32,000 nucleotides of DNA from Candidatus Dojkabacteria bacterium (GCA_016932045.1 JAFGDO010000023.1:1-32000); one strand, 5' to 3'; shown: positions 8,882 to 28,485, numbered from the stretch's first letter. Notes: a model not told the origin generated them from the letters alone. Numbers and translations are program-made.

Positions 8882-8951
8882 GTTCTCGAGTAAGGGTTAA
8901 TCGTCTCGATTTAAACAATATCTTAGGCGATTCAACCGATTCCAGATTCGC

Positions 8952-9608
8952 TTAAGCCATTAGTGGAACTTTTAGGCGTTGACTGATTTCTTCTATCTCC
9001 ATTAACTCTGCCACTTTTTCGCTTGCACGGAATTGACCGTTTGATCTGACAAGCCAAGTACCATCTTCGTGTTTTAGTATTTCTGATCCTATCATTTCAG
9101 TTAATCTTTCAGATATAGTTCCAGCTAGCTCGGTACTTATTTGTTCTAGTAAAGAAATAGCAAGCTCTTCTCTGATACCAGGCACAACTGTGATTTTAGC
9201 TATCTCATCGCCGTCCAACACACCTGCAATGCTAACCTCGACGGTTTGCTCTTCCTCGGAACCAGGTCCTGGATATTGAAATGCGGCTACTCCAGTGCAT
9301 ATGATGGCGTCAGTGCGAGCAGTTTCGCCTGTAGGAATACCCTCTCCTGGATATTCTGGTTCTGTCTGGATTTTTGCGGCTTCAAGTCTATCAAAGTAAA
9401 CTCGAGTTAATTCTACTCTTTTAAACTTATTCCCTTTTGGGAGCTCAAATGGAGTTTCAAAAGTATGAGGGCTTGCCTGACTAAAAGCACCCTCAGCTAA
9501 AACACCTGTATCTTGGGCGAGTCTTTTCATTCGTAAGAGGTCAATAAACCCGGGTTTAAGTTGTTCGGTGAGAATCGAAGTGGTTTCAGCTCCTGCAATC
9601 TGGGTCAT
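8952..9608 (-). CDS. Hypothetical protein
   Basis: Long ORF with flank-like GC content. The ATG at 9608 (MTQIAGAE) is preferred to the upstream start at 9689. No family recognised. Confidence 0.55.
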   Translation of the reverse strand: MTQIAGAETTSILTEQLKPGFIDLLRMKRLAQDTGVLAEGAFSQASPHTFETPFELPKGNKFKRVELTRVYFDRLEAAKIQTEPEYPGEGIPTGETARTDAIICTGVAAFQYPGPGSEEEQTVEVSIAGVLDGDEIAKITVVPGIREELAISLLEQISTELAGTISERLTEMIGSEILKHEDGTWLVRSNGQFRASEKVAELMEIEEISQRLKVPLMA

Positions 9609-9745
9609 GTTTTTCAAGCTTAAATTAGTGGTTAAAAAGATATTAACAAGATTTTTTCTACTTATCAAACAATGCACTTGGGATTGCATAGACAGCCAAT
9701 AGATTTTATTGTACGATAATTTGTGGGCTTAATTGAGATATTTCT

Positions 9746-10432
9746 ATGAAGCTAAAATCCTTATTAAAAAAAGAGAAGAGATTTTTGTTGTTTTTCCTTA
9801 TTTTTATTCCTTGTGTAGCATTATTTATTAGCGGGGTGTTTTTATCTGTTACAAAAAGACCAATAGCTGAACCTGATAATGTTATACCGAAATTTAGTGT
9901 TGAAGAATTGCCAACAACAGGAGAGGGTGAAATCGTTGAGGAGGAATTAGGAAATTCAACGTTACTAACATACACTAACGGTAAGTATGGATATTCTTTT
10001 GACTATCCTTCGGATATAAAAGTTATGGACTTGACCCTTAAGGGCTGCAAAGGATTAAGTTGTGTAAAAATTCCTCAAGCTAGAAAGGACTTTGCTTCTC
10101 TGGAAGACTTAAATATCTCAACTTTTTACTCAAGTTCCATTCTCGATTTTGCTTATGATGAGGGCTTAGACAGATCACTTTATAAAGAGCCAAGGCAAAC
10201 AACTATTGGAGACAAAACATATTACTACATCATTTCCAATGAGGGGTTTGTAGAGATGATTACTTCTGACTTTAGGTACCAGGGAGAAATACTTTGGGTG
10301 AAAACTGATCAAAGAGTTGATGGTGCTAATGGTGCTTACTATATTGCCTTTGATCCAGGTATCTCAATAAATGCTATTCCTGAAGAAGATATTGAAGAAA
10401 TAGATAAAGTATTGAAATCCTTTAGATTTTAA
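9746..10432 (+). CDS. Hypothetical membrane-anchored or secreted protein
   Basis: 228-aa ORF with an N-terminal hydrophobic anchor (FLLFFLIFIPCVALFISGVFL). No family recognised. Confidence 0.6.
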   Translation: MKLKSLLKKEKRFLLFFLIFIPCVALFISGVFLSVTKRPIAEPDNVIPKFSVEELPTTGEGEIVEEELGNSTLLTYTNGKYGYSFDYPSDIKVMDLTLKGCKGLSCVKIPQARKDFASLEDLNISTFYSSSILDFAYDEGLDRSLYKEPRQTTIGDKTYYYIISNEGFVEMITSDFRYQGEILWVKTDQRVDGANGAYYIAFDPGISINAIPEEDIEEIDKVLKSFRF

Positions 10433-10456
10433 TTGTCACACTTTTTTATTTTAATT

Positions 10457-11284
10457 ATGCGTAAAACATTAGGAATTTTATTAATTCTTCTTATCGGCTC
10501 ATTAGTCTTTTTTGAGCTTTATAGATATTCCCTTATAGAGATTATTGGTGATGTTGATATAAAAGAATTAAAAGATGTGTCTTTTAATCAAGACGGTAAA
10601 AGCGAAAGACCATTTATCGGGGAAGAAGCGTTTAAGGATACATTTACTGTTGTTATCGGTGATGTTTCCGAGGAAGAAGATCCTGATGATATTTTAGGTG
10701 AAGAAACACCAGTCGAGCTTCCCTACAAAAAGGGATTAATTGAAATGCCCTTATACCGTGGAGATTATTATTATGGTAAACACATCAATGCAACAGCAGC
10801 AACAAAAGAACTAAATCAAAAAATGCCTATTCTTGAACCCGGAAGTAGGGTTGCAGTTATCGGAAACGGATATTTGACTATGAGTAAGGGGTGGGGCTAT
10901 GTCAGCCCCGGTGCTGAGTTTATGTATGCGTCAGGAGTGTGTTGGACTACCAGTGCTCTTGGAACTACGATGGATGAGGTCAACAAAGAATTCATGTATA
11001 AATATGATATGCCGCTATTTGTTTTTTATGCCGGTGATAGATACCCTCATCCTGTTGCTTATAGTACATATCGGAACAGCAACTATGGATTTGGTTATAC
11101 TGTAGTTAGAGCCTATGGAAGAGGAAGTCCTGATTTCAAATTTACTGTAAATCCAAACATAAAGACGAATCCAAAATTCCTGAATTTAAAAATTAAGATA
11201 GTAATGGTATCCTCAACTGACCATCCCAAAGCCTTTCTTGGACAGTCAATCGGCGGATATATAGAATCAAATATTGACTTTTAA
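10457..11284 (+). CDS. Hypothetical membrane-anchored protein, possibly VanW-like
   Basis: ATG at 10457 (MRKTLGILLILLIGSLVFF anchor). The segment ASGVCWTTSALG...RYPHP loosely resembles the VanW-domain GxC...H pattern. This is a weak call. Confidence 0.5.
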   Translation: MRKTLGILLILLIGSLVFFELYRYSLIEIIGDVDIKELKDVSFNQDGKSERPFIGEEAFKDTFTVVIGDVSEEEDPDDILGEETPVELPYKKGLIEMPLYRGDYYYGKHINATAATKELNQKMPILEPGSRVAVIGNGYLTMSKGWGYVSPGAEFMYASGVCWTTSALGTTMDEVNKEFMYKYDMPLFVFYAGDRYPHPVAYSTYRNSNYGFGYTVVRAYGRGSPDFKFTVNPNIKTNPKFLNLKIKIVMVSSTDHPKAFLGQSIGGYIESNIDF

Positions 11285-13918: not shown

Positions 13919-14626
13919 TTAACCCTTATTAAATATTATTTCAACATCGATAAATACTACTCTCCCATTGATTAGAAAGTGATGCCTTGAGTGTCTTACC
14001 TCGTCCTCTATCTTAAAACCCGGATATCCCTCTTGTTCTGCGTATCGATGAATATATCTCCTAACCCGAATCTGATCAACTCTTGAGGTTAGCGGGGTTA
14101 ATCTGGCAGGTCTTTGTCCATACTCTTGGAACATTATTCCATAATGTGCATCTCCACAAATGGATACTGGCAGTATCATGTAAGTCCTCAGATCAGAATA
14201 GAAGGCCCTGCGTTTTCCCAACATTTCTTTTGCCATGTATATCTTTGGATCTGTCGGGACTTGGACTCCAAGGCTACCATCATATCCTGCAAGATGTACT
14301 ACTACCTTTCCGTTTCGAGTAGAAAGCAGAAAGGAGAGTTTGGATTCTCCTCCTCCTATATATTCTAGAGTTCCAATACGTGGGATTTGTTCCTGAAATG
14401 AAAATAGATCTCTATCGATTTCACGGAATCTTTCTACTAATCCCAGTGATAATATTTTATCCGTAACAGCTTCAATAACATCTACGGTTAATTCTTGTGA
14501 GTAAAGGGTATCTTTTTGATCATAGTTGGGTTCAAGACCTTGAAAAGCAGGACTTGCAAGAGCTTGATCAAGATCAGCTCTTGTATAAGCCTTTTTGACT
14601 TCCTCTGTTGCTGGTACTTCGCTCAT
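13919..14626 (-). CDS. Hypothetical protein; last core-like gene before the island
   Basis: 235-aa ORF. GC content resembles the flanks (hand count 43% for 14041-14100). No family recognised. Confidence 0.6.
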   Translation of the reverse strand: MSEVPATEEVKKAYTRADLDQALASPAFQGLEPNYDQKDTLYSQELTVDVIEAVTDKILSLGLVERFREIDRDLFSFQEQIPRIGTLEYIGGGESKLSFLLSTRNGKVVVHLAGYDGSLGVQVPTDPKIYMAKEMLGKRRAFYSDLRTYMILPVSICGDAHYGIMFQEYGQRPARLTPLTSRVDQIRVRRYIHRYAEQEGYPGFKIEDEVRHSRHHFLINGRVVFIDVEIIFNKG

Positions 14627-14689: not shown

Positions 14690-14943
14690 ATTAGGAGTGG
14701 AAGTGACTCCACCATGCCTACATATCGCTTTTCGAAATTTCGGGAGGCAGGCCGTGAATCCATGCCTACGCTAAAGCTTCGGCAGGCAGGCGAACCTTCT
14801 TTCAGAGTTTATTCCAGAACGATCAACAAATGACACTTCGACAAGCTCAGTGTCACTTCTCCTCTTTGTATTACACATAATTCTTTTATTAAGAATATGC
14901 TTGCACTGAGCGAGTTCGAAACGTAGTGAAGAACGAGTCGAAG
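14690..14943. repeat. GC-rich repeat cluster in the core/island junction
   Basis: CCATGCCTAC occurs twice (14712-14721 and 14760-14769), each heading a degenerate unit of about 48 nt that ends in GGCAGGC. A TGACACT...AGTGTCA hairpin (14831-14857) encloses CTTCGACAAGCTCAG. Motif variants follow: CTGAGCGAGTTCGAA (14906-14920) and GAACGAGTCGAAG (14931-14943). Confidence 0.6.
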
Positions 14944-14999
14944 TGACCCCGAAGAACTGGTTATCGAACCAAATAATAAACGATTTATTGAAAATCTAT
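14943..14999 (-). pseudogene. Degenerate copy of the 3' part of tRNA-Glu (candidate displaced att remnant at the left island border)
   Basis: GTGACCCC[gaaga]ACTGG[tt]ATCGAACC (14943-14970) aligns with GTGACCCCACTGGGAATCGAACCC of the intact tRNA (28414-28437) in the same orientation. Weaker similarity continues into the anticodon stem-loop (GATT..TGAAAATCT versus GATTGAGAATCT). Confidence 0.45.
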
Positions 15000-15061: not shown

Positions 15062-16825
15062 CTAGGAGTTTCCTTTTTTATCAGATAGAAATAGATTCGG
15101 TATGTTAAAAATTTTTAGATAATCCTCATTATTCATTCTTTTTTCCTTCTTAGGATTACTTTGAAAACTTCCAAACCTATATAAGCTATGTCCTTTAACT
15201 GATGATTCCCATTCTAATACTTCATTCACAAATTCAAAAGCCTCCTTTCCCTGAGATGATCCTGCCCAAAAAGTTTCTAAATCCAGCAATGATAAAATTA
15301 TTGGCTTTTTGGTTTGTAAGGAATCAAGTTTTGTATCTATTATTTTTTCAGTTAAGTAATTGTTATATCTATTAAGCAAATCAAAATCTCCAAAGTAACG
15401 TTCTGTGACCAGAATAGGAATAACCTCAGTGGTTGGACTCTTTTTCTTGATTTCATTTACATATTTGTTTAATTTGCGTAATTTACCTCGGTTCTTGCTA
15501 AAAAGTAGATCAAATAAATCTTTTTCAAAACTTAAAATATCTGAATTATAAAGTGATTCCAGTTTATAATACTGAGTAGTAAATTCTAATACGAAAATAT
15601 ACTTCTTCCCATTAGCTTCTGCTTTTACTATTGCATCTTGCTGATTATTCTTATTTGATGTTATTTGTGCAGACTCATGAAAGATTTGTTTAATTAAGAA
15701 ATTAAAATATTTTTCAATTAAATTTCCATATACACCCATAAATTCCTGCATATTATCACTTAAATCAGTTCTATTTAATTCAAACAATTTATATTTCAAA
15801 CCTCCACAGATGTTTTCTATAAAGTAAGTTAAGTCCAAAATGCAAAAACAGTTCTTTTCAACTTCACATACTGGATTATCATATATATAAGGGAAGTATT
15901 TATAAATTTCATTGCTTATTTCAACTTTTGGTTTTCCTTTAAAAATTTTAATAAAGTCCTTAAAATTCTTACTCAATGATTCTAAGCTATTGTATACAAT
16001 TGGATTTTTTTTAAAATTCTCTTTTAATATGTAAAATGTTTTAGGATTTTCTGGTCTAAATCCAAAACCTAAGTCAGGTTTTAACTTTCTTGCGAATAAA
16101 AACCAACTTATAAGTAATTTAATTGTTTCCATGTATTCTATTATATTGATTCCTGTTAAATCTTTGAAAGTTTTTTCAATTTGTCCCCAAAAAATTTTAT
16201 CAGAATTATTTAACTCCTTAACTAAGTCCGAATATATCTTGTTGTATCTGAGATAGTTGTGTTTAAAATACCACTCAAGTGCTTCTGGGTTCATAAAATC
16301 TGGATTCCTAATTAAACCTCGTTCAATTTCAAAAATGCTTTTAGCTTGTGCGATACTTAATTTTGAATTGGCTAGTAAAAATATTTCGAGTAGTATCTTT
16401 TTATCTTCTGGATCAATATTTTTTTCTTTATCGTTATTTAGTCTTATTCTTTCAGCAATTACATAAAGTAAGGTGTCTCTCGGTATTACTAATCCTTGAT
16501 CCTGAAATTTTCTCTCTGTTTCTATATTTGGATAAAGCCGTTTGACATCATTCAATAGCATTTCTTGAGCTATCTGAAAGTTAGTAGTTTGCATCACCAT
16601 ATTCATATGAGCTGATGCACATACGCAGTCTAATGCTGATGTATGATTTAATAAGTTTTGAAATTTTTTCTCAGAGAAAGACCCAAAAATATCTTCGTAT
16701 CCTGTATATGTAACAATGTTCACAGCCGAATCATCTTTCAATCTATCGGTATCTAAACAACATTTTTTATACTTTTTCCCACTCCCACAGTGACATGGCA
16801 TGTTTCTGCCAAGTTTATTATTCAT
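15062..16825 (-). CDS. SEC-C motif protein (587 aa), otherwise unrecognised; fourth gene of the cargo operon
   Basis: N-terminal MPCHCGSGKKYKKCC is the SEC-C metal-binding motif. A possible PD-(D/E)xK-like pattern (GVYGNLIEKYF...QQDAIVKAE...IFVLEFTTQ) is a weak call. The gene starts 28 nt after the upstream gene. Confidence 0.7.
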   Translation of the reverse strand: MNNKLGRNMPCHCGSGKKYKKCCLDTDRLKDDSAVNIVTYTGYEDIFGSFSEKKFQNLLNHTSALDCVCASAHMNMVMQTTNFQIAQEMLLNDVKRLYPNIETERKFQDQGLVIPRDTLLYVIAERIRLNNDKEKNIDPEDKKILLEIFLLANSKLSIAQAKSIFEIERGLIRNPDFMNPEALEWYFKHNYLRYNKIYSDLVKELNNSDKIFWGQIEKTFKDLTGINIIEYMETIKLLISWFLFARKLKPDLGFGFRPENPKTFYILKENFKKNPIVYNSLESLSKNFKDFIKIFKGKPKVEISNEIYKYFPYIYDNPVCEVEKNCFCILDLTYFIENICGGLKYKLFELNRTDLSDNMQEFMGVYGNLIEKYFNFLIKQIFHESAQITSNKNNQQDAIVKAEANGKKYIFVLEFTTQYYKLESLYNSDILSFEKDLFDLLFSKNRGKLRKLNKYVNEIKKKSPTTEVIPILVTERYFGDFDLLNRYNNYLTEKIIDTKLDSLQTKKPIILSLLDLETFWAGSSQGKEAFEFVNEVLEWESSVKGHSLYRFGSFQSNPKKEKRMNNEDYLKIFNIPNLFLSDKKGNS

Positions 16826-16853
16826 ATTTTATAATTCCTTTTTTATAAAAATG

Positions 16854-17612
16854 TTATAAAACAAACTCCCCTTTCTCATCCCTAAAGCGTCTTTTCTCAC
16901 TTGATTTTATTAAATTCTTCCTCCTCCTTTTCTGCTTCTCCCAAATCTCGTTCATTTCCTCAACAGCTTTATTACTCTGAATATACTCTTGCCCTTCCTC
17001 ACTCGTTAAACAATATTTATCCCTATCTTTGGCAAAATCGAGGTCTTTTTTCTCCTCAATATTTCCGTAAGTATATACATCTATGTTTTTACACTTATTA
17101 CATTTTGTGTACACAGTCAATTCTCCTTTGATCTTTTTTGTTGACTTCTTAACATTTTCACTTCCACATTTTTTACATTTAGCTGGTTTTACTCTGTACT
17201 CTGTTCCATCATTATAAAAAGCTCTACAGCTATTACAGTCTGGACAGCTATACATAAAAAATACATATTCATGCCCATATCTTTCTCTCAAGCTTTTATC
17301 AAAACATTTCATGATTTTGTTACAGCAAAGGCAGTGAATGTTTTTAAGTTGCTCTGAGTTTTCAAGTAGCTCATCCTTCCTTCTGTCTTCACTTATCCAA
17401 GCTTGAATTTGTTTATCCTTCTTCGCATATTCTTCCCCTTTCCAAAAGTACATACATAAATCGTGGATAGCTTTTCGTGCCTTAAACAGTTTTAGAGGCT
17501 CATTTTTCCTACGCTTTAAATCCTTGTCCATCAATCTTCCAATCGTAACAGTATGCCTGTCGTATAGGTCGCTGTAGTAGATGTGATCTTTTTCGTGCTT
17601 GTAATAATTCAT
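16854..17612 (-). CDS. Double zinc-ribbon protein (252 aa), unrecognised; third gene of the cargo operon
   Basis: Four Cys pairs (CLCC, CPDC, CKKC, CNKC) spaced as two zinc ribbons, with a basic C-terminal tail (KQKRRRKNLIKSSEKRRFR). Confidence 0.65.
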   Translation of the reverse strand: MNYYKHEKDHIYYSDLYDRHTVTIGRLMDKDLKRRKNEPLKLFKARKAIHDLCMYFWKGEEYAKKDKQIQAWISEDRRKDELLENSEQLKNIHCLCCNKIMKCFDKSLRERYGHEYVFFMYSCPDCNSCRAFYNDGTEYRVKPAKCKKCGSENVKKSTKKIKGELTVYTKCNKCKNIDVYTYGNIEEKKDLDFAKDRDKYCLTSEEGQEYIQSNKAVEEMNEIWEKQKRRRKNLIKSSEKRRFRDEKGEFVL

Positions 17613-17655
17613 TGGTTTCTTGGTTCGCTTTTAATTTATTCTTAGACCTCGCTTT

Positions 17656-18627
17656 TTATATATCTTTACTGATAATATCAAGCAGTTCGTTAAAACCTAT
17701 TTCTTCCCTTTCTAGTTTTCTTAGATAATTATCGCAATCAGCGGGACTTAATAGCCCTCTTATTCCTATCTGGGTTTCAAAGTTCAATTCCTTTCCAATT
17801 CTAGTCAATGCTTCATTTAATTTATCAATGATATATTCCCTTAAAATAGCTTTAGTTCCGTGAAATTTTACATATCTATATAAATAATAATATTCTGTCA
17901 TGCGATTCTTGTACATACTTCTTGCAGTCCAACCTAAACCTCTTGTCAATTTGGCAACTTTTGTGTCATAAATCTTTCTGAAAGCTTCATAATCGAAAAA
18001 AGTTTGCTTAATTGAGTCTAATCCTTCTTTAAACACAAATTCAGGAGAGGTAGTATGCTTCCCTATCCAATTTAATTCATTAAGAATTTTAACAATTTTC
18101 CTTTTACCCCCCAGTAATCTTGGGAAAGGAAATTTCACTATTCTATCTTTTGGAAAAGATATATACCTCTTTTCTATTTTATAACTTGTTCTTACCTCAG
18201 AAGGGATTATCTGAAAGCATTTACCGAAAATATTCTTTAACGAGTAGTTCGGAATATCTATTAAGCAAAATCCATTAGGTTTATCTTTATCTTTTGAGGG
18301 ATAATAGTAAACTATTTCGTAATAAACATCTCCATAATAGACTAACAGTTTGGTGCATCTCTCTACAAAATCACAGACAACATTACATAAGCTTTGAGGA
18401 TATTCTTTATCTGTTAACCCATAAGTTAAAAGAGACTCAACTTCTTTTGAAGAAAAAGTTAATTCCACTTTAAATTTTTTATTTTCGGTTCTACCTCCTA
18501 TTGGCATTATTCCTAAGCCAAAGTCATCAATAAGCATAAATGCGTAAGATTGAAAGTCCTTCGCTTTCTTGTTTTGATAATAAATTGCTTGTTGTGAATT
18601 GTATTTCGAATCACTTCTTTTAGGCAT
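17656..18627 (-). CDS. Hypothetical protein (323 aa); second gene of the cargo operon
   Basis: Long ORF whose start overlaps the stop of the upstream 825-aa gene by 8 nt (18620-18627). No family recognised. Confidence 0.65.
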   Translation of the reverse strand: MPKRSDSKYNSQQAIYYQNKKAKDFQSYAFMLIDDFGLGIMPIGGRTENKKFKVELTFSSKEVESLLTYGLTDKEYPQSLCNVVCDFVERCTKLLVYYGDVYYEIVYYYPSKDKDKPNGFCLIDIPNYSLKNIFGKCFQIIPSEVRTSYKIEKRYISFPKDRIVKFPFPRLLGGKRKIVKILNELNWIGKHTTSPEFVFKEGLDSIKQTFFDYEAFRKIYDTKVAKLTRGLGWTARSMYKNRMTEYYYLYRYVKFHGTKAILREYIIDKLNEALTRIGKELNFETQIGIRGLLSPADCDNYLRKLEREEIGFNELLDIISKDI

Positions 18628-21097
18628 TTTTTTTCTTTTCTCTATCTAATATTTGAATAAAATCGTCTAGACCGCTAATATTAAAAGTTTTAATTCCTGC
18701 AACATCTTTTAAATATCCAGCCATGAAAACGTATATCGGTGAATTAAGTGAGGGAAGAAAGGTTTTTCTTGCCCAAACACGAATTAGAGGGCTTTTGTGT
18801 TCAACGTCTTCCTCTCTATCGAACGGGTCTCTACTCCGTTCTTTGCTTATAATCTTTTTCTCTATCAATTTAGCATTAAACCTTCTTGACCAATTAAACC
18901 TTAACATGTCTCGTTCATATATACGTATTGATGTTTTTCTCAATTTGTATAAGGTTATTAAAAATTGAGTTACCTTATTTTTATCCTCAACTAAATCTAA
19001 ATACTTGTCCCAACACCCCTTGCATGATTTCCATATTGAACTATCATCATAGAGTTCTCCATATAATATCGCATATCCACTTAATTCGAATAAATCCATG
19101 AAAGGTTCTGATGCCAGTAAAACTTTATCCAAGGCTCTGATATTTGAAGGTTTTAAATCATCGAGTAGTCCATAATACAACTTGAAAGCAGAAGAAAGTA
19201 AGGGGATAAATAATTTATTGAATTTTTCTGTATGATTACTCCTAATAGCTTCGTAGACTTCAAAACATATAAGATTAAAGCTCTGCCCATAAAAATCGGG
19301 AAATTCTTCATCAGTATTAGGTTGTAAAAATAATATACACTTGGCTAAATTTTCAATAACCCCATCATTGAAGGAACCGATCCCTTTAAGAATTTTCGAC
19401 ATGTCTTTTTCTTTATAATCAATTTCATCAACTTTGGGAAACTCACTAATATACTTTTTAATAGAGTGATTAAAGTTGTTTACAAGCTTAGAAGATAGTT
19501 CTTGGGCTCTTAATAAGAAAAGAGTTGCCGTTAGATATTTCTTCTTCCTTATTAGTTCGTTGACGTCATAGATAAAGGTATCGCTAAAAAACCTTAAAAT
19601 CGTTTCAAGATTTTTTACTGTTAATGATATAAACTTTTGTGAGAGGAGCTGAATAATGTACCAGTCTGTAGTAATTTTTTTTCCTTCGATTTCGATTTCA
19701 AAATTACATTTCTTCTGAACTTCGATAAGCATATCCAAGAATGCTGGATGGAATTTACTCTCATATACAGCACATTCATCTCTCCAATTCACTTTACTAA
19801 TTTGTTGTCGTAGGTTTTTATAGTTGAAGACATCAAATGATTTTATAAAGCCGATAAACAAATCTGCTATCCCGAAAGCAATCAAATCATTTAAAGCTAA
19901 CACATTGTTTATATATTCCTTATCATCTTCTTGAGACTTTAAAGTTAATGCTAGGACAGGTCTGTACATTCGTTTTATTATCGAAATTCCTTGTTCTATT
20001 TCCCAGTTCAAACCAATATCCTCAAGAAGATAGGAAGTTAGTTGAACAATTGTTAAAGCATTCTCAAAGTCATTTGAATCAAGAGATTTTACTAGTACCT
20101 TTTCAATAATGTCGATTAACTCATCTTCTAGCCAAAACCTGTTGGGAATTTCATCAGGCATGAGAGCAGTTTTCGTGTTAAGAGCGATCTCTTCTCTGGA
20201 AATATCACCCAAAAACCATTTCCTATGTTTTCGCTTTCTAATAAACCAAAAACTATTAGGTGGTATCTTATATTTATAATTCTTTATATAGCTTTTGTAG
20301 ATTGCTAATATTTGAATTGTTAAGTCTGATAGTGTCTTATCCTTAAAGTGTCTCTCCGACATACAAATTTGAGTTAGACACTTCATTTTGTCAATCTTGT
20401 CATCGACTATTTTTCTATAATGATTTTGAAAGTTTTTGTCTTGCCACTTAAAACCCTTAACCTTAACACGGTTGAGAGTCTTATCAATTTCGAATCTTAT
20501 TGTCTCTCCTAAAATACTCGGGTTAAGTAAGTTAATAGTTCGCCATCCCAGGCTGATGAAAACAAATATAGCAATGAAAGCAAAGACTAAATTTAGTACC
20601 GAATTAAGCATCCCTGGATTTCCACCAAATGAAAGTGTACCTAACATCAAGAGTGTATGAGCTAACAATATACATAGGAAAGTTATATACAGGTTTCCAA
20701 CTTTGTCTCTAAAAAGACTGCTTATTTGTGGAGGGACTTTTACACTTGCAAAAATACTGATGCTGGTAAAATACAAACCGATATAAACACCAGTTACAGA
20801 TACAATAGCTGTTAGCAGGTCTCTGTAAGGTGAATCGGGACTAATTAGATAGGGATTGGCATTTATGTTTGCAATAGACTCAATATACCCTAAACCGAAA
20901 AAAAAGAATAAAGAAATTAAAATTGATTTAAGAGAGACTTTAATAAACTCAAAGAATACCTTCAAAATGAACTTAAAGTCATTCACATTTTCTTTCTTCT
21001 TAAAGAAAACTTTATTTATCTCAAACAATATTCGTTCACGAATACTTCTAATTACCCAATAAATCTTTTTGTTTGTATATTTGAATAAGAAAAACAT
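18620..21097 (-). CDS. Membrane protein (825 aa) with four N-terminal TM helices and a large soluble domain; first gene of the cargo operon
   Basis: Hydrophobic helices are SILISLFFFFGLGYI, LLTAIVSVTGVYIGLYFTSISIFASV, LYITFLCILLAHTLLMLGTLSF and VLNLVFAFIAIFVFISLGW. About 630 aa follow without a recognisable motif. Confidence 0.7.
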   Translation of the reverse strand: MFFLFKYTNKKIYWVIRSIRERILFEINKVFFKKKENVNDFKFILKVFFEFIKVSLKSILISLFFFFGLGYIESIANINANPYLISPDSPYRDLLTAIVSVTGVYIGLYFTSISIFASVKVPPQISSLFRDKVGNLYITFLCILLAHTLLMLGTLSFGGNPGMLNSVLNLVFAFIAIFVFISLGWRTINLLNPSILGETIRFEIDKTLNRVKVKGFKWQDKNFQNHYRKIVDDKIDKMKCLTQICMSERHFKDKTLSDLTIQILAIYKSYIKNYKYKIPPNSFWFIRKRKHRKWFLGDISREEIALNTKTALMPDEIPNRFWLEDELIDIIEKVLVKSLDSNDFENALTIVQLTSYLLEDIGLNWEIEQGISIIKRMYRPVLALTLKSQEDDKEYINNVLALNDLIAFGIADLFIGFIKSFDVFNYKNLRQQISKVNWRDECAVYESKFHPAFLDMLIEVQKKCNFEIEIEGKKITTDWYIIQLLSQKFISLTVKNLETILRFFSDTFIYDVNELIRKKKYLTATLFLLRAQELSSKLVNNFNHSIKKYISEFPKVDEIDYKEKDMSKILKGIGSFNDGVIENLAKCILFLQPNTDEEFPDFYGQSFNLICFEVYEAIRSNHTEKFNKLFIPLLSSAFKLYYGLLDDLKPSNIRALDKVLLASEPFMDLFELSGYAILYGELYDDSSIWKSCKGCWDKYLDLVEDKNKVTQFLITLYKLRKTSIRIYERDMLRFNWSRRFNAKLIEKKIISKERSRDPFDREEDVEHKSPLIRVWARKTFLPSLNSPIYVFMAGYLKDVAGIKTFNISGLDDFIQILDREKKKNA

Positions 21098-21262
21098 TTT
21101 TAGTGATTTTCATAACGTTTTCTAAAATAGATGCTGATACGTTAAATCGATACATATAGATTATATTATTTAGAAAAAGTTAAGTACAATGAGGAATCTA
21201 GAACCGATATTTTTTTTACTTAATTTGCTAATCTCTATGAATAGAGAAGCTGAATAACAATT

Positions 21263-21424
21263 ATGAATAAATTACCCACTTCATCAAATGATCAGCATTG
21301 CATAAGCGTAAAAGAAGCAAGAGAAATTCTTGGAGAGAAAATGAAACACCTAACTGATGAACAGATTCTGCAACTCATTACAGAATTGGAACAACTTTCG
21401 GATATTTTTATAAAAAGTGAATGA
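21263..21424 (+). CDS. Small ORF (53 aa), paralogue of the ORF at 26583-26792; not in the supplied ORF track
   Basis: My translation is MNKLPTSSNDQHCISVKEAREILGEKMKHLTDEQILQLITELEQLSDIFIKSE. It shares the pattern VKEAR-IL...(S/T)DE-(I/V)-Q-I...IFI with MDVKEARHILNLGEEYSDEFVQQIIDQTAKIAQIFIEQF. Confidence 0.4.
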   Translation: MNKLPTSSNDQHCISVKEAREILGEKMKHLTDEQILQLITELEQLSDIFIKSE

Positions 21425-21851
21425 AGAGAGTAAGTGGCTATCATCATTTATTAAAGCATTTACGAGTTGATAATAAATAGCTTATAGTCTATTTCTAATA
21501 GACCATAAAGAAAATGTTGTGTTAAAATTGATTACATAGACTTAAAATTAAGAATAATCCTTGTATAGAGGTTCTTTAGTAACCTACAATAACTATGTAT
21601 TTAAGTGACGTAAAGTGGTATGTTTGTGTCCCTTTTTTAAAACGTTTTAAAGTTATGATATTCACCCACAATAAGCTCATAGTGCTTTCGTATAGAGTCA
21701 AAAAGTTTTCTGTCAGTTAAGTTGTATAAGTCAAATATAATCTTAAACGATTTTATTGCCGTAGATAAAGCTAAATCTCCAATTTTATCTATGGATTAAA
21801 AGGCGTGTAATAGGCTAGTTTGAGGCCTTTTTCTAACAAAATTTTACGTTT

Positions 21852-21895
21852 TTGAAAAAATAAGTTTTTTAAGGTAATATTTCAATATATTGAAA
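21852..21895 (+). promoter_or_regulatory. Promoter plus 16-bp perfect palindrome (candidate operator) directly upstream of the HTH-methyltransferase gene
   Basis: TTGAAA (21852-21857), a 17-nt spacer, then TAATAT (21875-21880). The palindrome TTTCAATA|TATTGAAA (21880-21895) overlaps the -10 and start region, 8 nt before the ATG at 21904. Confidence 0.5.
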
Positions 21896-21903
21896 GTTTT
21901 AAA

Positions 21904-23106
21904 ATGCAAAATGTAGGAAAAAATATAAAAAAATATAGAGAGGTAGCTGGCTTAACTCAAAAAGAACTTGCTAACAAATCGGGTGTTACCTACTCAACTA
22001 TTACTAAAATTGAAGCTGGAATAATCAAAAATCCGACAATTTCTCAAGTTTCAAAAATATCTTCTTATTTAGATATTCGAATGGATGATCTTGTGTTTAA
22101 TGAAAATACAGTAACCGAAGATATTACAAAAGGTAAATTTATAGATTTATTTGCAGGTATTGGAGGATTTAGACTAGCACTCGAAAGTTTCGGTTTAGAA
22201 TGTATTTTTTCTTCTGAGTGGGATAAGCAAGCTCAAAAAACATATGAAGCTAATTTCGATGAAAAACCTTTCGGAGACATTACAAAAATAAATGAAAAGA
22301 AAATACCAAAACATAATATTTTATGTGCTGGATTTCCATGTCAGGCTTTCAGCATATCAGGCAAACAATTAGGCTTTCAAGACACAAGGGGGACTTTATT
22401 TTTTGACATTGCTAGAATAGCTAAATTTCATAAACCAGAAATTCTCTTTTTAGAAAATGTAAAGAATCTTGTTCGACATAACAATGGAAAAACTCTCGAA
22501 ACGATAAGAAATGTTTTAAAACAAATTGGATATGATGTTTTCTATAAAGTTTTAAATGCGAGCGATTATGGCATACCAACCTCTAGGGAGAGAATTTATT
22601 TTATTTGTTTTAGGAAAGACCTTAAAGTAACTGAATTTAGATTCCCAGAGTCCAATGGGAAATACGTAAAACTTGAAGATTATCTTGAAGAAGATAAAGC
22701 CGAAATCGAAAAAAGCATTATAAGAAGGGATGATATACATATAAGGAATAAAATAATCGAACCTGATTTATTGGGCAACTATCCTCAAAAGCCAATTAGA
22801 GTGGGAACTATTAACAAGGGAGGTCAAGGAGAAAGAATTTATAGTCCTTTAGGTCATGCTATAACACTTTCAGCTTATGGAGGTGGCGCAGGGAGCAAAA
22901 CAGGGGCATATTTAATTGACGGGAAGGTTAGGAAACTTACTCCAAGAGAATGCGCTAATGTGATGGGATTCCCCAAAGATTTTGTGATTCCAGTCAACAA
23001 AACTCAAGCCTACAAGCAATTCGGGAATAGTGTAGCCGTTCCAATCCTTAAAGAAATATTTAAAAATATTATAAAAGCATATAATGAAAAAACAAGAAGC
23101 TATTAA
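21904..23106 (+). CDS. DNA (cytosine-5) methyltransferase with an N-terminal XRE-type HTH domain
   Basis: HTH: IKKYREVAGLTQKELANKSGVTYSTITKIEAG. MTase motifs: FIDLFAGIGGF (I), GFPCQAFS (IV, catalytic Cys), LENVKNL (VI) and QFGNSVAVP (X). Confidence 0.9.
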   Translation: MQNVGKNIKKYREVAGLTQKELANKSGVTYSTITKIEAGIIKNPTISQVSKISSYLDIRMDDLVFNENTVTEDITKGKFIDLFAGIGGFRLALESFGLECIFSSEWDKQAQKTYEANFDEKPFGDITKINEKKIPKHNILCAGFPCQAFSISGKQLGFQDTRGTLFFDIARIAKFHKPEILFLENVKNLVRHNNGKTLETIRNVLKQIGYDVFYKVLNASDYGIPTSRERIYFICFRKDLKVTEFRFPESNGKYVKLEDYLEEDKAEIEKSIIRRDDIHIRNKIIEPDLLGNYPQKPIRVGTINKGGQGERIYSPLGHAITLSAYGGGAGSKTGAYLIDGKVRKLTPRECANVMGFPKDFVIPVNKTQAYKQFGNSVAVPILKEIFKNIIKAYNEKTRSY

Positions 23107-23845
23107 ACTTGGTTCTCAGACAGCAAAAAAGGGGTTTAAAAACGAAAGAGATATTGCGAAAAAGTTTAACAATTGGGAAAACGATGAAGATGCTAAAAAA
23201 TGGTTAAGTATTATGAAATATGATCTAAATAAGATAGAAAAAGTGGTGGCAATTGTTTTGTCAAATCAATATAAATCTGATATTCAAGTAAAGGTTTCTG
23301 TCTATCTGAAAGAAGCTATTTCTGCCGAAAACATTAGCATTAAGCTAGTAAGCAATCCAAAAGGATATAATCAAGTGGATAAAAGATGGGTTGATAAATA
23401 TGCTGGAATGTGGAACATGCCTAAACAGATTAGAAAGTTGCTTAAACACTTTACAGGAGAGGTAACACCATACAAAACAAAGATAAGAGATAAAAGACGA
23501 ATGTTTTTAGATGAATTTACTGATGAAGAACAGCAAAAAATTCGAAGATTCTTTATGAAAAAGAAATTATTGATTGTTGGAGATATATTAAAAGGACGTG
23601 GCAGATTATCGGCGGAATGGATGATGGTCGCACTTAGAATAAATCGAAAAGTGACATGGACTCTAAAACCTATAAATTTAGTTCTAAACATTTTCGGTAA
23701 CGGTAAAGTCGAGATAACAAAGAAAGGAAGTTTAAAAATAGGCAAGATCACTATGCAGAGAAAAGGCGGAGATGGAGGGAGAAAAACTGCTCAAATGTTG
23801 CAATTTAAGATAAATCCAGTTGAACTATTCGATTCTAATGGATAA
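23084..23845 (+). CDS. Putative type II restriction endonuclease partner of the C5 methyltransferase
   Basis: The start overlaps the methyltransferase gene by 23 nt, and the stop overlaps the vsr start by 8 nt. From memory, the C-terminal RKGGDGGRKTAQMLQFKI resembles C-termini of MspI/HpaII-type enzymes. That resemblance is unverified. Confidence 0.6.
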   Translation: MKKQEAIKLGSQTAKKGFKNERDIAKKFNNWENDEDAKKWLSIMKYDLNKIEKVVAIVLSNQYKSDIQVKVSVYLKEAISAENISIKLVSNPKGYNQVDKRWVDKYAGMWNMPKQIRKLLKHFTGEVTPYKTKIRDKRRMFLDEFTDEEQQKIRRFFMKKKLLIVGDILKGRGRLSAEWMMVALRINRKVTWTLKPINLVLNIFGNGKVEITKKGSLKIGKITMQRKGGDGGRKTAQMLQFKINPVELFDSNG

Positions 23846-24242
23846 AGTTAGCAGAAAAAAAAGAAGTCAAATTATGAGTAAAGTTAGAAGCAAGGATACT
23901 AAGATAGAGATAGAATTTAGAACTGAGTTGTGGAAAAAAGGATATAGGTATAAGAAAAATGTTTCTAAGTTAAAAGGCAAACCCGATTTATACTTCCCGA
24001 AATATAGAACAGTTGTTTTTATAGACTCTTGCTTTTGGCATGGATGTAAAAAGCATCTTAGAATGCCTTCTTCAAATAGAGGCTATTGGGAATCCAAAAT
24101 AAGGAAGAATATAAATAGAGACAAGGAAATTAACAAATATTTTAAGCAGAATGGATATAAAATAATTAGAGTATGGGAGCACGATATTCAGACGAATCTA
24201 GACAAAAGCATTAAACGAATTATTAGAGAATTGAAGAAATAA
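23838..24242 (+). CDS. vsr: Very short patch repair endonuclease (Vsr)
   Basis: SRKKRSQIMSKVRSKDTKIEIEFR...GKPDLYFPKYRTVVFIDSCFWHGC...W..KI..N..RD matches the Vsr family pattern. Start is the ATG at 23838. Confidence 0.85.
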   Translation: MDKVSRKKRSQIMSKVRSKDTKIEIEFRTELWKKGYRYKKNVSKLKGKPDLYFPKYRTVVFIDSCFWHGCKKHLRMPSSNRGYWESKIRKNINRDKEINKYFKQNGYKIIRVWEHDIQTNLDKSIKRIIRELKK

Positions 24243-25143: not shown

Positions 25144-25437
25144 ATGAATGAATTGAAACAAATATCAGAAATACAAATTATCCCAATAAAACCCCAAAAT
25201 GGTCTTGTGGCTTTTGCAAGCTTTGTTCTTGATTCGAAACTTTATCTCGGTTCAATAGCAATTATTACAAGACCCAAAGGAGGATATAGACTTGTTTACC
25301 CGACAAAAAAAGTGGGAGAAAAAGATATAAATATCTTCCACCCGATTGATAAAGAATTTGCCAAAACTATTGAATCCCTCATATCAAATAGACTTAATGA
25401 AGTAATGAATAATTATGAAAGACACAAAAGAAACTAG
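25144..25437 (+). CDS. SpoVG-like small nucleic-acid-binding protein
   Basis: ISEIQIIPIKPQNGLVAFASFVLDSKLYLGSIAIITRPKGGYRLVYPTKK...INIFHPIDKEF follows the SpoVG pattern: a conserved A-x-A-S strand, then a P-(T/S)-K-(K/R) motif and an H-P-I motif. Confidence 0.5.
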   Translation: MNELKQISEIQIIPIKPQNGLVAFASFVLDSKLYLGSIAIITRPKGGYRLVYPTKKVGEKDINIFHPIDKEFAKTIESLISNRLNEVMNNYERHKRN

Positions 25438-26116
25438 GTCACAAAATGTATTCTTCAAGGTATTTATAAACCCTATTCGTTATGATGGGTTATTAAAAGT
25501 CTTACCGCCAGAATTACTTTCTACAATAATAGCATTAGCAACCTTCATCGATGATATGAACACTTGTTATCCAACAATTAGAACTCTAAGCAGTATTTGC
25601 GGAGTAAATTCTTCAACAACACAAAGACGAATTAACCGCTTAAAGGATATTAGATTTAAAGGGCGACCTGTTATCGAAATCAGAAAGCAGAAAGTGCAAA
25701 ATTCTGGTTTTAGCAGAAATAAATATGAATTAAATAAAGTTATGGGAATAGCGATCTTTGACAATAATCATAGTACGCATAGACGCAAACAATGTACACC
25801 TAAACAACTTCTAGACAATACTAACCAGACCCACTATTTAAAACAAGACTATAGTAATGAAACAATAGATGAGATTAAAAAAGTAGCGGATCTGCTTGTA
25901 AGATTCGATAAAAGGATAAATGGAGACATTGGATTTAGTAGGAGGGCAGTATTATCACATATAAAACATTTTGGCGAAGAAAAATGGCGTGAACTTTATA
26001 AAGAAATGAATCGCAATGCTTCTGGAATTTACTTCTATAAAAAAATAACCTTCAAAGTTATTCGTGAAAAAAAGACATACGAGCAAGCTAAACAAGAATG
26101 GGATAGTGAGCACTAA
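25415..26116 (+). CDS. Winged-HTH protein of the phage/plasmid Rep-associated type (HTH_36-like)
   Basis: CYPTIRTLSSICGVNSSTTQRRINRLKDIRFKGRPVIEI matches the common 'cfPS-etLA...G-s--TV-r-i--L' wHTH pattern of mobile-element replication and regulatory proteins. It overlaps the upstream gene by 23 nt. Confidence 0.5.
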   Translation: MKDTKETRSQNVFFKVFINPIRYDGLLKVLPPELLSTIIALATFIDDMNTCYPTIRTLSSICGVNSSTTQRRINRLKDIRFKGRPVIEIRKQKVQNSGFSRNKYELNKVMGIAIFDNNHSTHRRKQCTPKQLLDNTNQTHYLKQDYSNETIDEIKKVADLLVRFDKRINGDIGFSRRAVLSHIKHFGEEKWRELYKEMNRNASGIYFYKKITFKVIREKKTYEQAKQEWDSEH

Positions 26117-26147
26117 TTTAATATTTTATTTTTTATTTATTATTAAA

Positions 26148-26582
26148 ATGAAATACTGTATTTATTGTAGAACAGCTACAAATCTTCAAGGAGCTGGTTT
26201 ATCTGTATCAACTCAGCTTGAAGGGCTTATAAAATTAGCTAAAAGGAGGAGACTCTGTATTGAAAAAGTATTTGTCGACTTTGGTTCAGCCAAAAATATA
26301 TCAAGACAGGGATTCAACTCAATGATTGATGAGATTAGCTCAGGTAAAATTCAAGGGATTCTTACTTTGAGATTTGATAGGTTAAGTAGGGATTTGGAAA
26401 CTACAAGCAAGTTGGTTCAATTGAAAAGTGAAGGTAAATTAAAAAGTATAGTAATGGAGGATGACGAAATAAGTTTGAGTCCATACGAATCCCTTACGAT
26501 AAATGTTATTGATACCTTGCAACAATTTGAGAAAGATATGAGAAGCTTTTCCATTAAGAAAGGAGCAAAAGGGAGGAAATAA
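26148..26582 (+). CDS. Resolvase catalytic-domain-only protein (144 aa) with the nucleophile Ser replaced by Ala
   Basis: YCRTATNLQ aligns with YIRVSSDQQ of the neighbouring recombinase. Other resolvase motifs are retained (VDFGSAKNISRQGF, RFDRLSRD, IDTLQQFEKDMRSFSIKKG). There is no DNA-binding domain. Start is the ATG at 26148. Confidence 0.7.
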   Translation: MKYCIYCRTATNLQGAGLSVSTQLEGLIKLAKRRRLCIEKVFVDFGSAKNISRQGFNSMIDEISSGKIQGILTLRFDRLSRDLETTSKLVQLKSEGKLKSIVMEDDEISLSPYESLTINVIDTLQQFEKDMRSFSIKKGAKGRK

Positions 26583-26795: not shown

Positions 26796-26850
26796 ATGGG
26801 CACTTGGTCAACAGCCTTTCTGGTTGTCTCCACCAAGTGTCCATTTTTTA
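26796..26850 (+). terminator. Intrinsic-terminator-like hairpin with T-run, ending 3 nt before the integrase ATG
   Basis: ATGGGCACTTGGT (26796-26808) pairs with ACCAAGTGTCCAT (26832-26844), giving 13 bp with one G-U. It is followed by TTTTTT (26844-26849). Confidence 0.5.
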
Positions 26851-26852
26851 TT

Positions 26853-28451
26853 ATGAAAAAGAAACATTACAAGTCCACAGATAGAAATAAAAGTATTCCT
26901 AGGTATCCTAGCAAAACGGCTGTGCTTTATATTCGTGTTAGCAGTGATCAGCAAGTCGGTAACTTTTCAATACGAACTCAATTAAAAACATGTAGGAATT
27001 ATGCAAGGAGGGAAAAACTAAAAATTGTTGGTGAGTTTGTAGAAGAAGGAGAGTCAGCTAAAGATGCAGAAAGAACGGAACTTAGTAATCTTCTGAACTT
27101 TATTACTAGAAATAAAGGGAATGTCGATTATGTCATCGTTTATAAATTTGATCGCTGGACAAGGACACAGGCAAGTTTTTATAGTCTGAAAGCGGTTCTT
27201 ATTAAAAATTATACAAATCTCATCTCAGCAACCGAAAATACGGATGATAGTCCTACAGGAAGATTTTTAGAAGGTATATTTTCTCTTGTAGCTCAACTTG
27301 ATAATGAAATTAAAGCTCAACGAACAAGAGATTGCATGATGACCAAAGCTTTAGATGGGTGGTATCCTCATCAGCCTCCTTATGGTTACAAAAATAACAA
27401 GGATACAAAAAGAGTCGAAAAAGACCCTATATACTTCGATAATATAAAAACAATAGCATATAAATTCATAGAAGGAGAAAAGTGTTATAAGCTAGCAAAA
27501 TACTTGAATGATCAAGGATTAAGGACACGGGGAGGAGACAAACGAAAACCAAGAATATTTACTGCAAAAGACGTAAGCGGTATTATAATGCGATATAGCA
27601 AATTCTGGGCTGGGAAGTACGATTGGGGTAAAGAAAGAAATATAAAAGGGAAACATCCGACTATGATCTCTTGGGAAGATCATCTTCTTATTCAAGAAAG
27701 ATTTAATAAGAAAGAAGTTTCTACTGGAAAACCGAAACAAAACTTTATTCTAAATTTTTCTATTAGATACAAAGTTGGCTTTTTATGTTGTGCTGAGTGT
27801 GGTGAAAGAATGAAATCATGCAGATCAGAAGGCAACGGAGGATTTTACCATTTATATTACTGCAACAATCCTAAATGTTCTGCAAAGAAAAAATCTATTC
27901 AGAGGCATGAATTAGAGGGTCTTCTCGAGAATCTGTTGGAAAAAATAACACCAACGCAAAGATATATAGATATGTTTAAAAAAATAACAGTAGAAGGATG
28001 GAATAATCAACAACAGGAGATAGAGGAAAAACAGAAAAGAGCTAAAAAATATAAGGAAAGTCTTTTGATTGAAAAAAGAGAAACAATAGCTATGAGACGT
28101 AGGGAAGAACTAGAATTAGAGGATTTCAAAATAGAAATGGAAAGAATAAAGAATGAACTTATTGTTACCAAAAAGGTTATTGAAGAAAATCAAATTGATA
28201 TAAATGAGCTTGAAGCATTACTCGAACAAGCCGAGTTGTTCCTTTCAAATATCAAACCCCTCTATTTAGGCTTCAATACAAAGCATAAACGTGAGTTTAT
28301 TACGATAATATTCCCAGAAGGGATTAAATATGCTGACGGAGTTTTACGAACCAATAAAAAGTCTTACCTGTTCGAGTATTTAGAGACAATACAGAAAGGT
28401 GAATTTGAATACGTGACCCCACTGGGAATCGAACCCAGATTACAAGATTGA
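26853..28451 (+). CDS. Large serine recombinase (integrase)
   Basis: Resolvase domain (AVLYIRVSSDQQ, KFDRWTR), recombinase domain (DGWYPHQPPYGYK), zinc ribbon (CCAECGERMKSC...YYCNNPKC) and a C-terminal coiled coil. The ATG at 26853 is preferred. The last 38 nt (28414-28451) lie antisense to tRNA-Glu. Confidence 0.9.
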   Translation: MKKKHYKSTDRNKSIPRYPSKTAVLYIRVSSDQQVGNFSIRTQLKTCRNYARREKLKIVGEFVEEGESAKDAERTELSNLLNFITRNKGNVDYVIVYKFDRWTRTQASFYSLKAVLIKNYTNLISATENTDDSPTGRFLEGIFSLVAQLDNEIKAQRTRDCMMTKALDGWYPHQPPYGYKNNKDTKRVEKDPIYFDNIKTIAYKFIEGEKCYKLAKYLNDQGLRTRGGDKRKPRIFTAKDVSGIIMRYSKFWAGKYDWGKERNIKGKHPTMISWEDHLLIQERFNKKEVSTGKPKQNFILNFSIRYKVGFLCCAECGERMKSCRSEGNGGFYHLYYCNNPKCSAKKKSIQRHELEGLLENLLEKITPTQRYIDMFKKITVEGWNNQQQEIEEKQKRAKKYKESLLIEKRETIAMRRREELELEDFKIEMERIKNELIVTKKVIEENQIDINELEALLEQAELFLSNIKPLYLGFNTKHKREFITIIFPEGIKYADGVLRTNKKSYLFEYLETIQKGEFEYVTPLGIEPRLQD

Positions 28452-28485
28452 GAATCTTGTGTCCTAACCGTTAGACGATGGGGCC
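28414..28485 (-). tRNA. tRNA-Glu (anticodon CUC)
   Basis: The reverse complement is GGCCCCA TC GTCT AACGGTTA GGAC A CAAGA TTCTCAA TCTTG TAAT CTGGG TTCGATT CCCAG TGGGGTC A. This gives a full 72-nt cloverleaf with a Glu-type D-arm and no encoded CCA. Confidence 0.9.

Follow-up and report, generated by a model that had tools for sequence, protein, structure and literature searches.

A membrane protein and a predicted portal-fold partner form a mobile two-gene module, a candidate anti-phage system, on a Candidatus Dojkabacteria island

Introduction

What are four tightly packed genes of no recognisable family doing on a mobile island of a bacterium of the Candidate Phyla Radiation (CPR), and do they belong to one system? 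The question is raised by 32,000 nucleotides from Candidatus Dojkabacteria (candidate division WS6, CPR; GCA_016932045.1, JAFGDO010000023.1:1-32000), a stretch which, at its full length, we call the window. An earlier note, made from the sequence before any database search, had singled out four head-to-tail open reading frames (ORFs) and proposed that together they encode an undescribed defence system carried as island cargo. The ORF map reproduces their coordinates, strand, lengths and spacing:

18620-21097, minus strand, gene A, 825 aa
17656-18627, minus strand, gene B, 323 aa
16854-17612, minus strand, gene C, 252 aa
15062-16825, minus strand, gene D, 587 aa

The last 8 nt of A are also the first 8 of B, and gaps of 43 nt and 28 nt separate B from C and C from D. 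We judge the four ORFs to be genuine rather than chance, because stop codons are common at ~30% G+C and because each of the proteins has homologues elsewhere.

Searches of all four proteins against Pfam, NCBIfam, PHROGs and PADLOC recognised only the SEC-C motif of D, and among the component models of PADLOC-DB v2.0.0 proteins A, B and C have zero matches at E <= 1. The PADLOC comparison, which the earlier note had suggested, thus names no system for the four; for D it returns only local matches of the 20-residue SEC-C motif, to the PDC-S12 and E1-E2 models. By sequence, then, the proteins are as unrecognisable as had been claimed, the SEC-C motif of D excepted. What had been missed is the large family to which A belongs and the portal fold of B, the latter brought out by structure prediction and Foldseek searches, which for A returned generic helical proteins only. 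Here we describe A and B as a module of their own, weigh the tentative proposal that it acts against phages, and then return to C, D and the island.

A and B are a conserved gene pair

A word-index search returned A itself only, as for an orphan, a picture overturned by an exhaustive HMMER search, in which the family comprises 1,075 representative clusters at E <= 1e-3 and 492 at E <= 1e-30. The homologues are mostly full-length (~840 aa) with 23–32% identity, and in their sources all are named 'hypothetical'. The close homologues of B fall into ~25 clusters at ~40% identity, and a scan of genome contigs with B yielded three loci only.

The two genes are strictly linked. In 27 loci the gene directly upstream of B is A, and in all 24 loci with enough upstream DNA to judge (~20 distinct sequences) A precedes B, overlapping it or lying a few nucleotides away. 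The arrangement is kept even in distant members, namely a Tn3 locus, a Paenibacillus lautus plasmid (NZ_CP032413.1; WP_119851504.1/WP_119851503.1) and a Burkholderia glumae plasmid (NZ_CP021077.1; WP_209954640.1/WP_209954642.1). Moreover, a natural fusion of the two exists (P0159, 1,145 aa), in which residues 1–798 match the A profile (E 1e-262) and residues 841–1140 the B profile (E 1e-57). Strict adjacency and fusion together argue for A and B working as a single physical unit, in which B presumably binds A in a complex. From these sequence comparisons we read A-B as a conserved, widespread two-gene module, with B as the obligate partner of A.

The hosts of A-B include CPR bacteria, Omnitrophota, Actinomycetes, Anaerolineae, Bacillota and Betaproteobacteria, a patchy spread over at least six bacterial phyla; members of the A family are also listed for Chloroflexota. 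In cultured organisms the RefSeq annotation of the pair is hypothetical proteins. Our full-text search of the literature found no description of a cellular portal-fold protein or membrane module of this kind and no mention of the A-B RefSeq accessions, and a search on DUF2254 (see below) and on portal-like or decoy defence found no relevant description.

Several variant loci were seen alongside these pairs. The P0159 fusion gene lies on a metagenomic contig (L040, 8001–11438) beside a SNF2-family helicase and an HNH_2 protein. In another locus (L032, 2260–3114, minus strand) an N-terminal A-family fragment, covering profile positions 7–165, follows closely after an intact A-B and points the other way. 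In two further loci (L035, 5392–6081; L036, 1292–1981) a B homologue truncated at its N-terminus (profile positions 102–328) has no A; unrelated ORFs of 268 aa and 140 aa precede it, and it is a copy in decay or else part of another partnership.

B is predicted to have the fold of a phage portal

The AlphaFold2 model of B, built from 26 sequences, has a predicted local distance difference test score (pLDDT) of 77 and a predicted template modelling score (pTM) of 0.82. In a Foldseek search of the PDB, ranks 1–39 are all portal proteins of tailed viruses (from phages and viruses 812, G20c, E217, lambda, P23-45, HFTV1, T4, 80alpha/SaPI1, Chi and Bxb1). Probabilities reach 1.00, the high-probability matches have query-normalised template modelling scores (TMq) of 0.37–0.49, and the first match that is not a portal has a probability of 0.03. 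A search of BFVD gave 11 matches at E <= 1e-3, and those that bear a name are without exception portals or phage-related; among the top 50, the named ones are portal, collar/connector, capsid-assembly or otherwise phage-derived proteins.

The order of elements in the model tells the same story. The canonical portal topology runs through wing, stem helix, clip, stem helix, tunnel loop, long helix and crown. In B an alpha/beta wing (residues 100–167) is followed by a stem helix (174–192), a short clip modelled with low confidence (193–212), a second stem helix (213–231), a disordered loop, also of low confidence (234–243), a long helix (245–281) and C-terminal crown helices. This order fits the portal topology and would place the loop at 234–243 in the position of the tunnel loop; the near-invariant motif LGWTAR (231–236) sits at the junction of stem and tunnel loop. 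On the strength of the model we regard B as a soluble portal-fold protein with wing, stem, clip and crown.

B does not, on the other hand, look like the portal of a virion, a role in which it fails by sequence family, by genomic context and by occurrence in phages. It shares its predicted fold and element order with the portals of tailed phages and archaeal tailed viruses (G20c 4ZJN/6IBG, 812 8QJE, E217 8FVH, lambda gpB 8K38, T4 gp20 6UZC), from which it differs in its shorter length, its minimal clip, an identity of ~10% and its pairing with, and in one case fusion to, the membrane protein A. No Pfam family matches it at E <= 1, no portal PHROG matches it, and a profile of B found no match among PDB sequences. 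A tblastn search of 50,697 phage genomes returned no homologue of A or of B, and pattern scans of IMG/VR found neither. No terminase or capsid gene was seen beside A-B in loci with annotated genes. To our knowledge, the portal fold has so far been met only in the virions of tailed viruses and herpesviruses, and in their derivatives.

A is a membrane protein with a large helical domain

As the earlier note had described, four hydrophobic helices (at ~54–184) fall within the first ~190 residues of A and are followed by ~630 aa of soluble sequence. Lysine plus arginine counts of 13 / 1 / 3 / 0 / 11, running from the N-terminus through the loops to the segment after the fourth helix, indicate by the positive-inside rule that both termini and the soluble domain are probably cytoplasmic, an orientation that fits a partner B without signal peptide and the natural A-B fusion.

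The AlphaFold2 model of A (50-sequence alignment; pLDDT 86, pTM 0.80) is all-helical save for two small hairpins, and consists of four long membrane helices and an all-alpha solenoid or toroid-like domain of ~630 aa. Since Foldseek matched the model to generic helical-repeat proteins and designed alpha/alpha toroids only (TMq <= 0.25), A appears to have no specific structural relative, and the A-family profile found nothing among PDB sequences. The sole hint of a known family is a weak similarity to DUF2254 (PF10011), confined to the membrane region of A (residues 95–208) and, at 10.9 bits (E 0.2), short of the 28.8 bits set as gathering threshold; among 50 members of the A family, three match DUF2254 at E <= 0.01, the best at 4.9e-5. 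DUF2254 proteins are ~370 aa long and of unknown function, and so provide no functional lead for A. We also considered A as an analogue of the terminase gene that lies 5' of a portal gene, and rejected this because A is all-helical, sits in the membrane and matches no ATPase or nuclease.

A-B is mobile cargo recurrently found beside defence genes

That the locus is cargo of a mobile island, as the earlier note had proposed, is borne out in the window by a serine recombinase abutting a tRNA-Glu gene and by low G+C (see below), and A-B likewise travels on other mobile elements. Six loci have large or small serine recombinases next to the pair, and four have tyrosine integrases; in one locus (L041) A-B lies in a Tn3-family transposon, and on the B. 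glumae conjugative plasmid it is flanked on both sides by copies of IS66.

Defence and toxin–antitoxin (TA) genes recur in the same surroundings. In two loci (L028, L039) type I HsdR and HsdS are encoded directly 5' of A-B, and the PADLOC candidates PDC-S42 (E 6e-52) and PDC-S45/LmuA-like 3' of it. Elsewhere the pair lies near GmrSD/HEC-05 and an nSTAND3 nucleoside triphosphatase (NTPase; L024), near a HigB-like toxin with an HTH-M78 partner (the Tn3 locus, L041), near CopG-VapC (VapBC; the B. glumae plasmid) and, in the window, near a type II restriction–modification (R-M) and Vsr module. A-B is thus mobile cargo recurrently placed beside defence or TA genes. The link to defence that the earlier note drew from a single neighbourhood therefore holds for A-B, where it recurs in independent loci. 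It is recurrent guilt by association, stronger than one neighbourhood could supply, and is not to be read as an enrichment statistic.

Proposed role of A-B and its alternatives

We suggest, at slightly less than even confidence, that A-B is a new anti-phage module acting through the portal-like subunit B. The four helices of A would anchor the pair in the cytoplasmic membrane, with the large helical domain facing the cytoplasm, and B would be a domesticated mimic of a portal, which A keeps at the membrane. In an infected cell B would engage the phage proteins that dock onto a portal, that is, scaffold, major capsid protein, terminase and head-completion proteins. Either of two outcomes could follow: head assembly and DNA packaging might be sequestered or poisoned directly, or engagement might be relayed through the solenoid of A to its four-helix domain, permeabilising the membrane and leading to abortive infection. 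In phages the portal clip docks the terminase, and scaffold and capsid proteins bind the wing and crown. The reduced clip of B would accordingly disfavour simple terminase docking and favour contacts mediated by wing or crown.

A number of points weigh against this proposal. The Foldseek statistics for B are modest (E 1e-3 to 1e-4, TM-score ~0.45, root-mean-square deviation ~10 Å, ~10% identity). At 323 aa B is ~100–200 aa shorter than portals, which have 400–750 aa, and its tiny, poorly modelled clip weakens the idea of a terminase decoy. A ring of B subunits, like the dodecamer around a DNA channel that portals form, would be expected from analogy only, and no effector or pore domain is recognisable in A. 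Recognisable defence or TA genes occur in only ~5 of 11 long A-B contexts, and neither A nor B is represented by a model in PADLOC (2023). In the window C and D follow closely on A-B, and may be functionally coupled with it there. Finally, we know of very little work on the biology of CPR phages.

Among the alternatives, the one that survives best starts from the fact that portals are DNA channels. A-B might serve the element itself: a portal-type ring on a membrane protein would give element DNA a conduit or a docking site, used in its export, import or exclusion, or would have some other part in maintaining the element at the membrane. The pair lies directly beside the recombinase in three loci (L008, L016, L020) and near ArdC and integrase genes, the LGWTAR motif is conserved at what would be the tunnel-loop position, and the module is predicted to be located in the membrane. 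However, A-B comes without any ATPase, relaxase or other transfer gene, the soluble parts are predicted to be cytoplasmic, and nothing is predicted across the envelope beyond the four helices. As a passenger in a Tn3 transposon, and between IS66 copies on a plasmid that is already conjugative, the pair would have no need of a private channel, and its neighbours are typical defence cargo. We consider a service to the element unlikely.

It is also decidedly doubtful that the portal likeness is an artefact of modelling or searching, or a convergence, with A-B a membrane complex of some unrelated housekeeping-like or stress function. Such a reading would draw on the E values, deviation and identity given above, on the two of five AlphaFold2 models of B whose pLDDT is < 50 and on the want of any sequence-profile link from B to portal families. 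Against these, two independent libraries return portals almost exclusively (the PDB match that follows ranks 1–39 drops to 0.03), the element order matches the portal topology, and a patchy, mobile distribution speaks against housekeeping.

A third alternative takes B for the real portal of a satellite or degraded prophage that hijacks helper capsids, and A for a membrane assembly chaperone such as T4 gp40 is for gp20. The portal fold of B, an integrative element with a recombinase, and the precedent of capsid-forming satellites that encode portals would all suit it, yet we hold it to be very improbable, since the annotated loci have no capsid, terminase, scaffold or head–tail genes near A-B, phage genomes and IMG/VR have no homologues, the pair occurs in transposons and plasmids of at least six phyla among otherwise unrelated neighbours, the A-B fusion would tie a portal subunit to the membrane permanently, and B is far smaller than functional portals. 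A degraded prophage as the setting of A-B was likewise rejected, as no phage genes and no phage homologues were found.

The anti-phage proposal thus remains our preferred reading of A-B. As to the fold, we think it possible, though short of probable, that cells or mobile elements have exapted the portal into a non-virion, membrane-tethered module, whether as an immune decoy or as a membrane-docked DNA channel.

Comparison with known systems

Kiwa consists of a protein with four transmembrane helices, KwaA, and a soluble protein of ~310–330 aa, KwaB (DUF4868). A-B resembles it in its two-gene layout, a four-helix membrane protein followed by a soluble partner in the same size range, and in its occurrence in defence islands. 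A, however, has an additional helical domain of ~630 aa and B has a predicted portal fold rather than DUF4868; with no DUF4868 in Pfam searches and zero PADLOC matches, we rejected membership in Kiwa. Zorya (ZorA/ZorB), too, is defence-island cargo, and has a membrane-embedded component with a long, all-helical cytoplasmic extension, a combination of membrane part and helical extension that A shares. B, in contrast, has no transmembrane segment or peptidoglycan-binding domain, and partners like ZorC or ZorD are lacking. Membership in Zorya was rejected on the absence of MotA/MotB-type homology and of any PADLOC or Pfam match, and on the unrelated neighbours.

Two further comparisons are conceptual neighbours of A-B only. 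Phage satellites encode mimics or remodelers of head proteins that interfere with phage assembly, such as the capsid homologue Ccm of the Staphylococcus aureus pathogenicity island (SaPI) SaPIbov5, Sid of P4, TcaP of the phage-inducible chromosomal island-like element PLE, and SaPI Ppi. They provide a precedent for a mobile element with a gene for a protein that is homologous to, or binds, a head or packaging protein of a phage. A helper phage packages these satellites, and they have packaging signals or genes, whereas A-B is carried by transposons, plasmids and minimal recombinase islands and is predicted to be tethered to the membrane. The Avs NTPases, of the STAND (signal transduction ATPases with numerous domains) type, sense phage portal or terminase, and are a conceptual mirror in that immunity is keyed to the head-packaging machinery; one A-B locus (L024) has the nSTAND3 NTPase as a neighbour. 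Avs binds the phage portal, whereas B itself has a portal fold by prediction, and neither A nor B has an NTPase domain. Judged against defence catalogues up to 2023, A-B is new in kind, and its function is a proposal.

C and D are separate modules

C has an N-terminal YYSDLYDRHTV motif conserved in its family, two CxxC...CxxC zinc ribbons and a basic tail. The earlier note had read its four Cys pairs as two zinc ribbons, and the family alignment supports this, with C94/C97, C123, C146/C149 and C171/C174 invariant across 11 sequences; matches to zinc-ribbon models in family libraries and in a PDB sequence profile search are sub-threshold only. Its homologues are 355–419 aa long and, in 10 of 10 cases, have a C-terminal domain of 100–160 aa that C of the window does without. 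They are found in other loci without A, B or D, next to ParB-methyltransferase and type IIG R-M genes or to a SMODS and SAVED pair, and in two cases a conserved 138-aa gene comes next. C is thus an independent module, itself frequent in defence or mobile-element neighbourhoods. In the latter two loci (L046, 3253–7667; L012, 276–1929) the C-family proteins have 415–417 aa and the overlapping 138-aa genes are 91% identical, and in the first of these the C-family gene comes directly after a SAVED and SMODS pair resembling a cyclic-oligonucleotide-based anti-phage signalling system (CBASS) and a ParB-N6/N4 methyltransferase.

The N-terminal SEC-C motif that had been noted in D (residues 7–24), a zinc-binding motif of the form CxC...CC, passes the Pfam threshold (PF02810, 27.2 bits against 20.4) and, in a PDB sequence profile search, matches the C-terminal peptides of SecA and YchJ. 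Full-length homologues of D number three only (48%, 47% and 30% identity). The most distant (P0005) has no SEC-C, so that the motif is accessory. The ~550 aa that follow are unassigned: beyond SEC-C there was no match for the C-terminal half of D in Pfam or for D among PDB sequences, even at E <= 10. The earlier note had picked out a loose PD-(D/E)xK-like pattern in D. Of its residues Y366, G367, D397, A398, E414, F415 and T417 are invariant in the family of four sequences, with D397 and E414 falling in this unassigned part, and the pattern has T, not K, in its third position. The homologues occur without A, B or C, in loci whose tightly linked 3' genes encode proteins of 423 aa or 302 aa that are unrelated to each other and to the proteins of the window, and we read D, from these comparisons, as another independent module. 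C and D are possibly stand-alone defence candidates.

Neither C nor D occurs in any of the other A-B loci (0 of ~23 distinct pairs), and A, B, C and D were not found together elsewhere, a result which the earlier note had itself named as counting against its four-gene system. Under this test of co-occurrence across other loci the four-gene system fails and the A-B sub-module passes. A single sensor/effector defence system of all four components is accordingly highly unlikely: shared strand, the 8-nt overlap and 43- and 28-nt gaps, the lack of an intervening minus-strand terminator-like site, and the fact that all four are unannotated and lie on the island would suit it, but the ~23 other A-B pairs do without C and D, members of the C and D families stand by themselves in other genomes and have other partners there, and C of the window lacks its family's C-terminal domain. 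The locus from A to D is thus a row of three independent cargo modules, A-B, C and D, and not one system.

The island and its surroundings

The three modules may nonetheless be co-transcribed in the window, whose other relevant features are:

14938-14952, minus strand, terminator-like hairpin, the sole minus-strand one found 3' of the four genes by a consensus scan
21098-21903, between divergent genes, AT-rich intergenic region of 806 bp separating A from the methyltransferase operon (ORF map)
21904-24242, plus strand, type II R-M and Vsr module (Pfam 6e-101, 9e-81 and 4e-26)
26796-28451, plus strand, large serine recombinase (Pfam Resolvase, Recombinase and Zn_ribbon_recom)
28413-28485, minus strand, tRNA-Glu (CTC; tRNA calls)

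No minus-strand terminator-like site was found between A, B, C and D by the same scan, and the hairpin at 14938–14952 is a possible end of a shared A–D transcript. Terminator-like sites are no more numerous than expected from shuffled sequence, which makes the hairpin weak evidence, and at the low G+C of the window both promoter and terminator scans are uninformative. The 806-bp intergenic region is presumed to hold the promoters of both A and the methyltransferase operon.

The methyltransferase/endonuclease/Vsr operon that had been reported near the four genes is present, on the opposite strand and starting 806 bp from A. It encodes a C5 cytosine methyltransferase fused to a helix-turn-helix (HTH) domain, an R.HinP1I-family endonuclease and a Vsr mismatch endonuclease. 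The HTH of the methyltransferase (21904–23106) is N-terminal and of Cro/C1 type, and the protein resembles a controller fused to the methylase, in an R-M system like HinP1I.

The AT-rich island itself is visible as a dip in G+C at ~15–28 kb (0.27–0.33, against 0.37–0.40 outside). Its recombinase and tRNA, also as described before, abut: the last 39 nt of the serine recombinase ORF overlap tRNA-Glu on the opposite strand, which suggests that the island integrated in the tRNA gene and now provides its 3' part. Within the window we found neither a second copy of the tRNA 3' part nor, in a search for island boundaries, an att-like or other convincing direct repeat, and for this reason the left boundary is placed by composition.

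Some other genes of the window deserve mention. Just upstream of the full-length recombinase, a short ORF (26064–26582, 172 aa) has the N-terminal catalytic resolvase domain only and may be a decayed or nested recombinase. The island also has a SpoVG-family gene (25144–25437, Pfam), flanked by a sigma-70 region-4-like gene and an HTH_36 gene. An ORF of 235 aa (13919–14626, minus strand; G+C ~0.40), lying a short way outside the low-G+C island, has no family match, and no relative of it was found beside the homologues of D. In the host-like part, four consecutive ORFs at 7184–11284 (565, 245, 228 and 283 aa) have no Pfam match. Elsewhere in the window a class I Trp/Tyr-type aminoacyl-tRNA synthetase (948–2555, 535 aa) has an N-terminal YbaK-like tRNA_edit domain, an unusual architecture; and a trigger factor homologue (4361–5401, 346 aa) has Trigger_N and Trigger_C with no match to the central peptidyl-prolyl isomerase domain.

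Implications

Tight same-strand packing on an island can reflect separate cargo modules laid end to end, and need not signify a system at the level of the operon. As for A-B, should it prove to be a defence module, it would be the first such system based on mimicry of a core virion protein, and would represent a new way of targeting the most conserved and hard-to-mutate part of tailed phages; should it conduct DNA instead, it would constitute a new membrane device for DNA translocation. Either role, if true, would introduce a principle new to bacterial systems and mark the first time that a portal is put to use by cells. The pair offers a lead on ~1,000 protein clusters now labelled 'hypothetical', and its copies on plasmids of cultured Paenibacillus and Burkholderia glumae make it tractable. 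Either way, a fold thought to be specific to viruses would enter the biology of cells and mobile elements.

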